Source: Acidobacteriota bacterium (lineage in GTDB: Bacteria; Acidobacteriota; Vicinamibacteria; Vicinamibacterales; JAFNAJ01). From it: 64,000 bases of DNA. This document shows, piece by piece, positions 30,572 to 60,894 of the stretch (position 1 is the stretch's first letter; the number at the start of each line of letters is the position of its first letter). Under the pieces are notes generated by a model. The model did not search any database. It worked only from the letters and a program-made list of their open reading frames with translations, and had not been told where the DNA came from. The stretch spans positions 3,962 to 67,961 of the forward strand of contig JAHDVP010000027.1 in NCBI GenBank assembly GCA_023384575.1, given 5' to 3'. The position numbers were made by a program, and so were the translations under genes.

Positions 30572-31192
30572 TCACGACCGCGGGCGGGCTGACACCTGCG
30601 TCGCGTCGAGCGCCGCCAGCAACTCCGCGACCGTCCGCCCCGTCACGGGGTCGCGCAGGTCGGGACCAATCGCCGCAAGAGGCTCCAGCACGAATCGTCG
30701 TTCCCGAAAGCGGGGATGCGGTACGCACAGTCCCGGCGCCTCGATCACCTCGTCGCCGCACAGGATCAGGTCGAGGTCGATGCGCCGGGGGGCGCCGGGA
30801 AACGGCCGCTCCCGCCCGAGTTCGGCTTCGATGGCCAGGAGACGGTCGAGCACCTGTCGTGGCGCGGCCGTCGACAGGCCGACGGCAGCGGCATTGAGGA
30901 AGTCAGGCTGCGGCGATACGCCGACCGGCGCCGTCTCGAAGACCGGCGACACCCGCAGATCCGTGAGGAACTCGGCCAGCCGGGCGGCTGCCCGATCCAG
31001 CGCGGCGCGCCGATCGCCCAGATTGCTGCCGAGGGCGACCGCGACCGGACGGACTCCCCCCGAAGAGACAATCCGGCTGGCGGCTGACGGCTGGCGACTG
31101 GCGGCCTGGTTGGAGGAATCAACGATTGAACGGAAGGCCTTCGCGGCACTCCCGGTGAGGTCACCGATCACGGAGAAGACGGCGATCTTCAT
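30572..31192 (-). CDS. folK: 2-amino-4-hydroxy-6-hydroxymethyldihydropteridine diphosphokinase (HPPK) with an unexplained ~46-aa N-terminal extension
   Basis: VAVALGSNLGDR..SPVFETAPVG..QPDFLNAAV..RERPFPGAPRRIDLDLIL..VPHPRFRERRFVLEPL. The only in-frame ATG/GTG/TTG start codons upstream of the conserved core are ATG 31192 and the GTG ~21 nt downstream. Both lie inside the repeated element at 31067..31238. Confidence 0.85.
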   Translation of the reverse strand: MKIAVFSVIGDLTGSAAKAFRSIVDSSNQAASRQPSAASRIVSSGGVRPVAVALGSNLGDRRAALDRAAARLAEFLTDLRVSPVFETAPVGVSPQPDFLNAAAVGLSTAAPRQVLDRLLAIEAELGRERPFPGAPRRIDLDLILCGDEVIEAPGLCVPHPRFRERRFVLEPLAAIGPDLRDPVTGRTVAELLAALDATQVSARPRS

Positions 31193-31238
31193 CGTGTTGG
31201 CCGGTAGCCGCTGGCCGGTAGTCGCCAGCCGAACGTCG
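31067..31238 (-). repeat. Copy A of a block-conserved ~160-170-nt paralogous element (partner at 59755..59912 on the + strand)
   Basis: Begins 8 nt after the TAG of the upstream gene. It shares four ordered blocks with copy B, including a 57-nt block (31204-31148) at 51/57 identity with a 28-nt identical core GATCGCCGTCTTCTCCGTGATCGGTGAC (31187-31160). Confidence 0.7.
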
Positions 31239-31246
31239 GACTGGGG

Positions 31247-31738
31247 CTACCCCACCCACCGGTCGGGTAACACGCCGCCGCCGGTGGTCTTTCCGCCGGT
31301 GCGGCGACCGAGGAGGTCGTCCCGTCCGGCGAGCATCTGCTCGAAGAACCGCTTCTGCTCGATCATCTCGCCGAGCATCAGGCGCAGCATCGTCCGGTTG
31401 CGCGCGTGGGTCAGCGTCTCGACCCTCGGCGCCCAGCGGTCGATGAACTCCGCCATCCGGCGCGCGTCGTCCGCGATCACGGCGCGCATGGCCGCCTCGC
31501 CACGTCCTTCGCGCGGCACCTCGGGTACGGGCACCTCGCCGGGCACGTCACCGGTGAGATCCCTGAGGGCATCGCGCACCCATTGCACGTGGTGTTCCTC
31601 GCGGCCGATCACGTACTGGTAGGTGTTGTTGAAATCGTAGGCCGGGACGAAGGCTGCGCCGGCGACGTGCCGGTCGCGCAGGGCCACCTTCTCCCGGTAG
31701 AGATCCTGCAGCAGGGCGATCAGAGCCTTCGAGGTCAC
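31247..31738 (-). CDS. Hypothetical helical protein (163 aa), possibly a ferritin-like/four-helix bundle
   Basis: GTGA overlap with the DksA-like gene stop. Helical composition with ExxH/ExxE-type motifs (GREEHHVQW, GEMIEQKRFFEQ). No family recognised with confidence. The track ORF 31247..32092 over-extends. Confidence 0.5.
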   Translation of the reverse strand: MTSKALIALLQDLYREKVALRDRHVAGAAFVPAYDFNNTYQYVIGREEHHVQWVRDALRDLTGDVPGEVPVPEVPREGRGEAAMRAVIADDARRMAEFIDRWAPRVETLTHARNRTMLRLMLGEMIEQKRFFEQMLAGRDDLLGRRTGGKTTGGGVLPDRWVG

Positions 31739-32067
31739 GCGCTTTGCTTTTCCTTGCAGGTGATGCAGACCCGCGTCCAGGGGATGGCGTTCAGCCTGGC
31801 CGGCGCGATCAGTTCGCCGCAGTCGCGGCACACGCCGTAGGTGCCCTTCTCGATCCGCTCCAGCGCCTCCTCGATGGCCTGGAGGATCTTGGCATCGGTC
31901 TGCCGGAGCTTCAGCTGGATGTGGACCTCGTTGTTGCCGCTCGCCTGGTCGGCGAGGTCGCCCTGTCGGGTGTTCTCCATCGAGGTCTGCAGGGGCTTCA
32001 TGCTCCCGCTCGAGAGGATCTCCTCCCTCTTTCGCACCAGGACATCGCGGAACTGTGCAGCCTCCAT
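31735..32067 (-). CDS. DksA/TraR-family C4 zinc-finger protein
   Basis: 110 aa. A coiled-coil N-terminal part, then CRDCGELIAPARLNAIPWTRVCITC (CxxC-N17-CxxC). Confidence 0.85.
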   Translation of the reverse strand: MEAAQFRDVLVRKREEILSSGSMKPLQTSMENTRQGDLADQASGNNEVHIQLKLRQTDAKILQAIEEALERIEKGTYGVCRDCGELIAPARLNAIPWTRVCITCKEKQSA

Positions 32068-57278: not shown

Positions 57279-59735
<2,457 letters not shown>

Positions 59736-59754
59736 TCAACCAACCCTTCTGACG

Positions 59755-59912
59755 CGACATTCGGCTCGAGGCTGCTGGCTGCCGGCCAGCACGACGACGA
59801 TCGCCGTCTTCTCCGTGATCGGTGACGTCAATGGGAGTCAACCGACGGCCAGTGGTCCGAGCGCTGATCTGCCCAGCCGGGCCGCCAGGCGCCGCCGACA
59901 GCCGGATCGTCA
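59755..59912 (+). repeat. Copy B of the block-conserved paralogous element (partner at 31067..31238 on the minus strand)
   Basis: Begins 19 nt after the glgP TAG. The 57-nt block 59782-59838 is 51/57 identical to the reverse complement of 31148-31204, with the 28-nt identical core at 59799-59826. Flanking blocks cgacattcggct, gggccgccaggcgcc and agccggatcgtc appear in the same order. Confidence 0.7.
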
Positions 59913-59988
59913 CGCTGGGCTCGTCCCTGCCCCATCGCTCCGACTCCCGTGAGATGATGGCGGCCGTCGTCATGGGAGGAACCCCGTC

Positions 59989-60126
59989 ATGCCGCGACGT
60001 CCGACCCGCCGCCCGGTTCTGTCGTTCCGCGCCGCCACCGCGGCCCTGCCTGCGTGCGTGCAGGTCGACGAGCTGCTCGCCCTCGTTGGCCGCGCGGGCG
60101 CGCCCGGCACGGCCGCGGCCCGTTAG
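59989..60126 (+). CDS. Candidate small ORF (45 aa) with a strong Shine-Dalgarno
   Basis: GGGAGGAaccccgtcATG. MPRRPTRRPVLSFRAATAALPACVQVDELLALVGRAGAPGTAAAR. High GC3. Below the ORF-track length cut-off, with no homology recognised. Confidence 0.3.
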   Translation: MPRRPTRRPVLSFRAATAALPACVQVDELLALVGRAGAPGTAAAR

Positions 60127-60138
60127 CCAGGCCGACCC

Positions 60139-60894
60139 GTGTACGCCCTCGTCTCGAAGCTCGTCGAGCCGTTCACCCTCGGCCTGATCGTCCTCGTGGC
60201 GGTGCTCGTCAGAACCCTGCGCCACCTCGGACCAGGCTGGCGGCGCGTCGTCGTGGCCACGAGCCTCGTCGTGGTATCGGCCTCGTCCTGGCCGCCCGTG
60301 GCCTGGGTGGCCATGCGCAACCTCGAGCGAGCGTCCGTCGACCGGGCCGCCGAGGCGGGTCCCGCCGACCCGATCGTCGTGCTCGGCGGCGGCATTCGCC
60401 GGCAGGCCGACGGCACGTGGGACCTCGCCGACGATTCGCTCGTCCGAACGCTGCACGGCGCGCGGCTCTATCACGCCCTCGGTCCCCGGACGGTCGTGGT
60501 GAGCGGCGGGCCACCGCCAGGCCTGCCCGACGCGGCCGTTGCGCGACCGATGCGCGAGCTGCTGCGGCGGCTCGGCGTCCCCGGCGAACGGATCCTCGTC
60601 GACGACCGATCGCGAACGACGTTCGAGAACGCCCTCGAAACGGCTCGGCTGCTCGACCAAAGCGCCTCGCGACGCATCGTCCTCGTCACCGAGGCCTATC
60701 ACCTGCCGCGCAGCGTGCGCGTGTTCGCCGCACAGGGCTTCGAGGTGCTGCCGTCGGGGTGCGGCCACGTGACCGCCGGCGCCGGGTGGCGTCTGACGGA
60801 TCTGCTGCCCGACGGACGATCGGCGCGCCGCACGTCACTCGCGGCGCACGAGTCGCTCGGCCTGCTCTACTACTGGGTCGCAGGCCGGCTGTAA
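60139..60894 (+). CDS. DUF218 / YdcF/ElyC/SanA-family membrane-anchored protein
   Basis: N-terminal TM (FTLGLIVLVAVLV), IVVLGGG, RLYHAL..VVVSGG, DDRSRTTFENA and LVTEAYHLPRS. Confidence 0.8.
   Translation: MYALVSKLVEPFTLGLIVLVAVLVRTLRHLGPGWRRVVVATSLVVVSASSWPPVAWVAMRNLERASVDRAAEAGPADPIVVLGGGIRRQADGTWDLADDSLVRTLHGARLYHALGPRTVVVSGGPPPGLPDAAVARPMRELLRRLGVPGERILVDDRSRTTFENALETARLLDQSASRRIVLVTEAYHLPRSVRVFAAQGFEVLPSGCGHVTAGAGWRLTDLLPDGRSARRTSLAAHESLGLLYYWVAGRL

Follow-up and report, generated by a model that had tools for sequence, protein, structure and literature searches.

What kind of DNA element starts shortly after a stop codon at two distant places in one bacterial genome, once on each strand? 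The question arose for a 64,000-nucleotide stretch (below, the window; G+C content, 70.9%) of contig JAHDVP010000027.1 from an Acidobacteriota bacterium of the order Vicinamibacterales, in which two similar blocks, here called copies A and B, follow a conserved hypothetical gene and glgP, respectively. An earlier note on this DNA had offered three possibilities: an RNA that regulates in cis, an intergenic RNA with structure, and a small mobile element of the non-autonomous kind. We find that A and B are very probably members of a lineage-restricted, imperfectly palindromic, non-coding dispersed repeat family resembling MITEs (miniature inverted-repeat transposable elements), so that the last suggestion is supported: an orthologous site is empty, the copies lie at unrelated loci, and they have inverted arms and short flanking direct repeats. 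The family appears to be undescribed; it matched nothing in Rfam or in the plasmid and phage collections, whereas the kind of element is itself known.

The likeness of the two copies is substantial. Copies A (31246 to 31058, minus strand) and B (plus strand) constitute the longest inverted repeat in the window (Table 1), and upon reading and aligning both regions we recovered every one of the ordered blocks that had been reported as shared, including the hairpin gctggc...gccagc with its differing loops. They are 71% identical over 172 columns (from CGAC to GTC), or 77.7% over ungapped columns. Conservation is distributed unevenly, with a longest perfect run of 28 nt (P = 0.0012) and a best 57-nt window with 51 identities (P = 0.0018; both by column shuffling), neither of which would be likely had the two copies diverged evenly. 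The core occurs exactly twice in the window, and none was seen in 100 shuffles with 3 mismatches allowed. The reported distances to the upstream stop codons are also correct (8 nt from the TAG at 31249-31247 and 19 nt from the glgP TAG at 59733-59735). The element of 160 to 170 nt to which they refer is real but was drawn too short on both sides, since comparison with four further copies extends A to 189 nt and B to 176 nt.

These four bring the family to six copies at six loci in two closely related genomes, the full copies measuring 176-212 bp and one being shortened to 120 bp. Copy C was reached when copy A, translated in frame 1, was compared by phmmer with 1.84 billion representative proteins. 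The single match (P0152; E = 2.8e-6) is a spurious open reading frame (ORF) of 81 aa that runs across copy C and is located on L076, a contig of 6.7 kb. L076 stems from the same JGI sample as L055, the contig with the empty site discussed below. By exact protein matches, the window corresponds to contig JASOAJ010000003.1 of assembly GCA_048499155.1. Copies D, E, and F lie on the same contig as the window, within 9.6 kb beyond its start (L077). A profile made from A, B, and C alone picks up D and E at E ~3e-5, while a profile of the termini yields paired arm matches for A to E, one arm for F, and nothing else in the window. The copies occupy unrelated, mostly intergenic sites in either orientation to their neighbors; copy A lies between a gene for a 163-aa protein and folK, whereas copy C has a tail-sheath gene on one side and a PIN gene on the other and is antisense to both. 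The agreement in polarity with the flanking genes, which the earlier note pointed out, holds for A and B only and is coincidental.

Could A and B nevertheless be the product of a one-off local duplication, or resemble each other by chance? The window itself holds two copies only, and the divergence between them (Jukes-Cantor [JC] distance, 0.27) does not exceed that at fourfold-degenerate sites between this genome and the relative with the empty site (JC 0.25-0.59), so A could have been copied from B after the split of these lineages. For the same reason, we dropped the argument that A is too diverged to derive from B. However, a similarity confined to these two loci is already refuted by copies C to F, one of which resides in another genome, and chance is excluded by shuffling. 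Moreover, A is overall nearer to C (80% identity) than to B (72%), yet it equals B in the core, which points to gene conversion or a recent common source in the genome. We therefore consider a purely local event extremely unlikely.

All copies share the same architecture, in which two inverted arms of ~50 nt enclose a variable middle, with CCC(C) at the start and GGG(G) at the finish. The arm consensus reads CCCC-NNNN-CGAC-RATCCGGCTGGCGGCTG... with a 7-nt periodicity (profile consensus, CCCCNNNNCGACRATCCGGCTGGCGGCTGNCGGCTGGCG), and the termini profile matches both ends of A to E in opposite orientation (E 5e-13 to 2e-4), as terminal inverted repeats do. In copy A the left arm displays 14-nt and 7-nt periodicity (TRF period 14 over 31198-31231) and the right arm 4.6 tandem copies of CGGCTGG, as written on the plus strand (TRF period 7 over 31074-31105); copy C contains 7.6 of the 7-nt units. 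Only the arms are common to all copies. By the middle, two subfamilies can be told apart, A/B/C and D/E, and the 28-nt core is limited to the former, with C differing at 4 of the 28 positions and D and E carrying another middle. The identity of the core in A and B is presumably a subfamily feature kept by recent common origin or gene conversion and not a functional RNA motif. With a size of 120-212 nt, no reading frame common to the copies, dispersion over six loci, and a presence/absence difference between related genomes, the family is like MITEs in these respects, while its target duplication is suggestive but not uniform.

The presence/absence difference is seen at copy A. An overlap of 13 nt joins the 163-aa gene to folK, with no element, in the closest relative (L055 and L056; neighbor protein 95% identical) and in Luteitalea pratensis (L059); in Luteitalea sp. 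(L057) the two genes are separated by 35 nt, again without an element. A blastn alignment of L055 with the window leaves 186 nt unmatched, while 7 nt of L055 (3121-3127) align on both sides, and the empty site in L055 reads GGGGTAG|TTCG. Since neither the nearest relative nor the two Luteitalea genomes have an element at the orthologous site, and the genes on both sides of A are syntenic with the relatives' loci, copy A is an insertion. The ancestral junction, GTGGGTGGGGTAG, which carried the folK start as well as the upstream stop, is now split by it.

TABLE 1 Features of the repeat family and its surroundings (window positions unless a contig is named)
Feature	Position	Strand	Remarks
Copy A	31058..31246	-	189 nt, 5' CCCCAGTCCGACGTTCGGCTGGCG ... 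CGCCAGCCGGATTGTCTCTTCGGGG 3'; nhmmer E = 1.4e-58
Left inverted arm of A	31195..31246	-	~50 nt; termini profile 31245->31194, E = 7.4e-9
Right inverted arm of A	31058..31111	-	Termini profile 31059-31111, E = 5.1e-13
28-nt core in A, GATCGCCGTCTTCTCCGTGATCGGTGAC	31160..31187	-	Exact match
GTAG, left putative 4-bp duplication of A	31247..31250	-	Includes TAG stop of 163-aa gene
GGAG, right putative 4-bp duplication of A	31054..31057	-	3/4 match to GTAG
163-aa conserved hypothetical gene	31247..31738	-	Upstream of copy A
folK (HPPK) ORF	30572..31192	-	206 aa, PF01288; first ~46 codons are element sequence
Copy B	59744..59919	+	176 nt; glgP stop on left, 45-aa ORF and DUF218 gene on right
28-nt core in B	59799..59826	+	Exact match
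glgP	57279..59735	+	818 aa, PF00343; TAG 8 nt before copy B
DUF218 gene	60139..60894	+	Downstream of copy B
Inverted repeat I1	Arms 31093-31209 and 59777-59893		117 nt, 77% complementary
Copy C	L076:3108-3319		Full copy; nhmmer E = 1.7e-37
Copy D	L077:7443-7638		Between RNase R stop and SelB start, antisense to both
Copy E	L077:332-520		Between convergent genes
Copy F	L077:4223-4342	-	120 nt, truncated; fills gap between two convergent stop codons

For copy B no such empty site was available, as the nearest DUF218 homologues (71% and 67% identical) have other upstream genes. The arms of B are more eroded, and its flanks (CCAA and CTCG) form no direct repeat. Copy B also marks a break in synteny: the 71% relative has 10 nt between the end of an M24 peptidase gene and the DUF218 gene (L061:1947-1957), while the gap between glgP and the DUF218 gene in the window spans 403 nt (59736-60138) and contains, besides the repeat, a 45-aa ORF preceded by a Shine-Dalgarno sequence (59989-60126) that this relative lacks. 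The RNase R stop and the SelB start, ~10 nt apart before insertion, are separated by copy D (L077:7424-7644), which splits a second tight operon junction.

The empty site also bears on the suggestion that the conserved blocks are motifs of a structured cis-regulatory or small RNA in the polarity of the flanking genes. The significantly uneven conservation of A and B and their common polarity with their neighbors would be in line with such an RNA, and the two copies can be given a consensus fold, closed by a stem, in which 2 of 44 pairs change on both sides, although RNAalifold had two sequences only to work with and this count is uninformative. However, an RNA of this kind is difficult to reconcile with an orthologous locus that is empty in the nearest relative and two Luteitalea genomes, with contexts as unrelated as folK, DUF218, tail sheath/PIN, RNase R/SelB, and convergent gene ends, with the antisense orientation of C and D, and with a core that is altered in C and absent from D and E. 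Within each copy, the left arm and the reverse-complemented right arm are 57-67% alike, and in the alignment of ten arms 100 cells depart from consensus on one side and 7 in a matched fashion, indicating that pairing is under no visible selection. A and C do fold as long rods (z = -5.3 for A; z = -3.0 and -3.2 for the two strands of C), and the fold of B is no better than that of shuffled sequence (z = -0.6 and -1.0). Rfam was likewise silent, with no match at gathering thresholds in the window, L076, or L077 and a best score of 15-16 bits (E ~1) below threshold over copy A, and no sigma-70-like promoter or intrinsic terminator was seen in the A or B region. Altogether, an RNA function of the blocks seems very unlikely to us.

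A protein-level explanation, with the blocks encoding a conserved peptide at an N terminus (IAVFSVIGD...) or belonging to a small gene on one strand or the other, might be considered because one forward frame is open through the core in A, B, and C and has a high third-position G+C content. In addition, gene callers extend folK into the element and call the 81-aa ORF across copy C. But copy B lacks a start in that frame, which ends 40 codons later, and the mismatches are mostly nonsynonymous; as the earlier note had it, they favor codon positions 1 and 2 (five of the six in the 57-nt block) of the sole frame open in both copies. Outside the core, indels shift the frame between blocks, and A, B, and C lose their common frame. 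Furthermore, the single match among the 1.84 billion proteins is a spurious ORF over another copy of the repeat. The earlier decision to set protein coding aside was thus sound, and we give this explanation next to no probability. A chimeric protein query of 744 aa, into which every open frame of A and B was joined, produced 8000 noise candidates, none of which scored.

How might a MITE-like element have reached these sites? A transposase encoded elsewhere would recognize the arms, and a short staggered cut would insert the element, leaving direct repeats of 4-6 bp: TTGA, TCCTAA/CTAA, GTAG/GGAG, TCAG/TGAG, and TTGA/TTCA. At copy A, such an event would have split the ancestral overlap of the 163-aa gene and folK. 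The flanks of copy C are a perfect TTGA/TTGA and those of copy D match at 6 of 6 positions (TCCTAA/TCCTAA), the right one holding the TAG stop of RNase R on the other strand; the flanks of E (TCAG/TGAG; boundary uncertain by 1 nt) and F (TTGA/TTCA) match at 3 of 4. The occurrence of at least two perfect flanking 4-mers among six has a probability of ~8e-4 by composition, uncorrected for the free choice of boundaries. A 7-bp duplication at A (GGGGTAG/GGGGGAG), as delineated by blastn, was dropped because copy C shows that the G-run is element sequence, and an inversion between A and B that could explain the missing duplication of B was rejected because both flanks of A are syntenic with Luteitalea.

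The duplicated targets would be A/T-containing, stop-codon-like tetranucleotides, and at 71% G+C such tetranucleotides may be expected mostly at gene ends. The left duplicate would rebuild the upstream stop codon, so that insertions exactly at stop codons may be tolerated. The combination of stop-like targets at gene ends and a restored stop could explain why A, B, D, and F start at or just after a stop codon.

The flanking repeats are also relevant for another view of the family, namely, that the copies are REP/REPIN-like (REP, repetitive extragenic palindrome) or ERIC-like palindromes, spread by an HUH/RAYT-type or other duplication-free mechanism and kept because they form a hairpin in transcripts that serves mRNA stabilization or processing. 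Consistent with this, A and C form long rods and the copies sit on the downstream side of coding regions, where the neighboring genes are unidirectional or convergent, as Di Nocera et al. (PMC3733652) report for REPs. The outward ends read YGTC, and CGTC-type heads are often altered to TGTC (PMC3733652). Also, no DDE transposase partner was found in the ~81 kb of the genome that was read. REP units, however, are 20-40 bp long and have GTAG or CGTC as their 5' head, followed by a stem of 8-9 bp, which begins with A/T pairs, and a loop of 4-5 nt (PMC3733652), and the present ends do not conform to this definition: compared by eye, each strand starts with CCCC-NNNN-CGAC-RATCCGGCTGG, which leaves the tetranucleotide misplaced and in the wrong polarity. 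The perfect direct repeats at C and D would be unexpected from HUH-type transposition, the arm changes are uncompensated, and B has no stable fold (z = -1.0). On balance, we consider a REP- or ERIC-like origin unlikely.

The insertion of copy A appears to have had consequences for folK. The relatives' folK encodes 156-158 aa, and between the element and the conserved folK N terminus (GGVRPVAVALGSNLGDR) there is no in-frame ATG, GTG, or TTG. The nearest in-frame starts, a GTG at 31171-31169 and an ATG at 31192-31190, of which the gene caller takes the latter, are both within copy A. Hence, folK must now begin inside the repeat, adding ~40-46 residues to its product. From the ancestral folK GTG (31259-31257), an ORF of 32 codons now runs to the TGA at 31163-31161 in the core. 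This stop follows the in-frame GTG by 6 nt and the ATG by 27 nt, and one may speculate that the short ORF couples translation.

Taking this further, the repeat might be an element adapted to operon junctions of a genome with high G+C content. It would target stop tetranucleotides, with the duplicated target restoring the upstream stop, while conserved internal signals (the invariant CGGTGAC, which holds a TGA stop, together with an ATG or GTG located a few codons upstream in another frame) would restore expression of the downstream gene. Should such a relay function, and do so at other copies as well, the repeat would amount to a mobile module for translational coupling. We regard this as distinctly unlikely.

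The 163-aa gene and its surroundings offer some further observations. Among 120 listed homologues, one (Luteitalea pratensis) is labeled bacterioferritin in UniRef and another Mn-containing catalase at JGI; the remaining ones are unnamed or "hypothetical protein," and no Pfam domain is recorded. Homologues with an organism label belong to Luteitalea, Vicinamibacteraceae, Vicinamibacterales, or "Acidobacteria bacterium" and are ~56-62% identical, and the closest homologue, from a metagenomic relative (P0001), is 95% identical. Upstream lies a gene for a DksA/TraR-type zinc-finger protein (31735-32067), which shares 4 nt (GTGA; 31735-31738) with the start of the 163-aa gene. The genes for DksA, the 163-aa protein, and folK are adjacent in this order in all Vicinamibacteria loci that we examined, suggesting a conserved operon.

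Several points weigh against a MITE-like family. No autonomous element or transposase gene with matching ends was encountered in the genome sequence that was read (~81 kb). Conservation in A, B, and C is stronger in the middle than in the arms, whereas MITEs usually show the opposite. The flanks are short, unequal in length (4 versus 6 bp), imperfect in three copies, and without a repeat at B; their boundaries were set by eye, to within 1-2 nt, and the target preference is based on five sites. Finally, the known copies number only six, from two closely related genomes. Scans with exact 20-mers of the core over 185,579 species-representative genomes and JGI metagenomes gave chance matches only, which implies a narrow distribution and leaves the copy number unverified. 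Over genome, metagenome, and viral contigs, all 34 exact 20-mer matches proved by blastn and nhmmer to be chance occurrences in unrelated genes. The core is poor bait for such scans because it is specific to one subfamily. Two degenerate patterns spanning A, B, and C found no match in viral contigs. On the supporting side, ~65 kb of loci from Luteitalea and other Vicinamibacteria relatives contained no copy.

Short-read (Logan) contigs of this organism from many samples (L016-L024, L031, and L067-L075) stop within copy A, at 31096-31100 and at 31190. A strain single-nucleotide polymorphism in contig L024 (31188 A->C) creates a 31-mer common to A and B and brings A still closer to B and C, and contig L031 begins as the A variant of the L024 type and continues as B. 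The break at 31190 may relate to this 31-mer, although the expected break position is not an exact match, and the one at 31096-31100 could reflect a further copy or sequencing drop-out in the GGC-rich hairpin. The contig with copy C, L076 (1-6736), contains contractile-tail-like genes (sheath, gp19-like tube, and baseplate) together with two PIN-domain genes, a PhdYeFM-like antitoxin gene, and an HNH/ScoMcrA-like gene, a set that could belong to a phage-tail-like particle or a defense island.

A MITE-like family at these loci has several implications. In annotation, the blocks should be entered as a repeat family and not as an RNA gene, the folK start is either mis-extended or truly altered, and the 81-aa ORF in the relative is spurious. 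The essential folate-pathway gene folK seems to depend on a start codon within a mobile repeat, which would thereby have been recruited into coding sequence. In practical terms, the family may cause contig breaks in short-read assemblies of this organism and may serve as a marker for comparing strains and lineages in an uncultured Vicinamibacteria-like group. More generally, it exemplifies how target choice and base composition could place a mobile element at stop codons, where it mimics a 3' untranslated region or leader RNA motif.

Among known systems, bacterial MITEs are the closest counterpart. Like these, the family consists of noncoding elements of 100-250 bp with inverted terminal arms and short flanking direct repeats, present in dispersed intergenic copies that differ in presence or absence between genomes and may insert beside or between operon genes, where they would be cotranscribed. 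Unlike known MITEs, it shows no sequence similarity to the searched collections and has no known parent insertion sequence (IS), and its arms are unusually long (~50 nt), composed of 7-nt repeats, and only 57-67% self-complementary. The Correia/NEMIS elements of Neisseria are bacterial MITEs as well, but the flanking repeat of Correia elements is TA, which is not what we find here. With regard to a possible parent, insertion sequences of the IS5 group generate a 4-bp target duplication, YTAR (PMC5009759). The 4-bp duplications of A/T-containing tetranucleotides proposed here are reminiscent of this, and CTAA at D fits YTAR; GTAG, TTGA, and TCAG are each one base off. With five sites, this is a lead only. 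The ends (CCCCAGTCCGAC...) are not known to resemble IS5 ends, and no IS5-type transposase was seen nearby.

Integron attC sites are a poorer comparison, as the motifs RYYYAAC ... GTTRRRY are absent from the ends as read by eye, no integrase occurs in the neighboring gene lists, and the neighbors are syntenic housekeeping genes. With REP/REPIN elements the family shares its palindromic nature, its lineage specificity, its location mostly downstream of coding regions, and inverted halves around a 20-100-bp spacer that can be conserved; it differs in having flanking duplications, and no RAYT gene was seen in the ~81 kb. ERIC/IRU elements are imperfect palindromes of enterobacteria, in Gammaproteobacteria, with a conserved central inverted repeat. 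Like them, the present elements are imperfect palindromes of >100 bp in transcribed intergenic regions, sometimes with size classes that arise from internal insertions, but here it is the arms that are conserved, and no sequence relationship is detectable. Rickettsia palindromic elements (RPEs) insert into ORFs in frame, and mycobacterial MIRUs are direct repeats in tandem whose ORFs maintain translational coupling. Both resemble the present family in being small repeats tolerated inside or between genes. Like an RPE, copy A supplies codons to a host protein, at the N terminus of folK, and like MIRUs, A and D are located at operon junctions that originally overlapped or were tightly spaced. 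RPE-4 and RPE-6 have been equated with CGTC repeats (PMC3733652). The likeness of the family to ERIC, Correia elements, RPEs, and MIRUs is one of lifestyle only.

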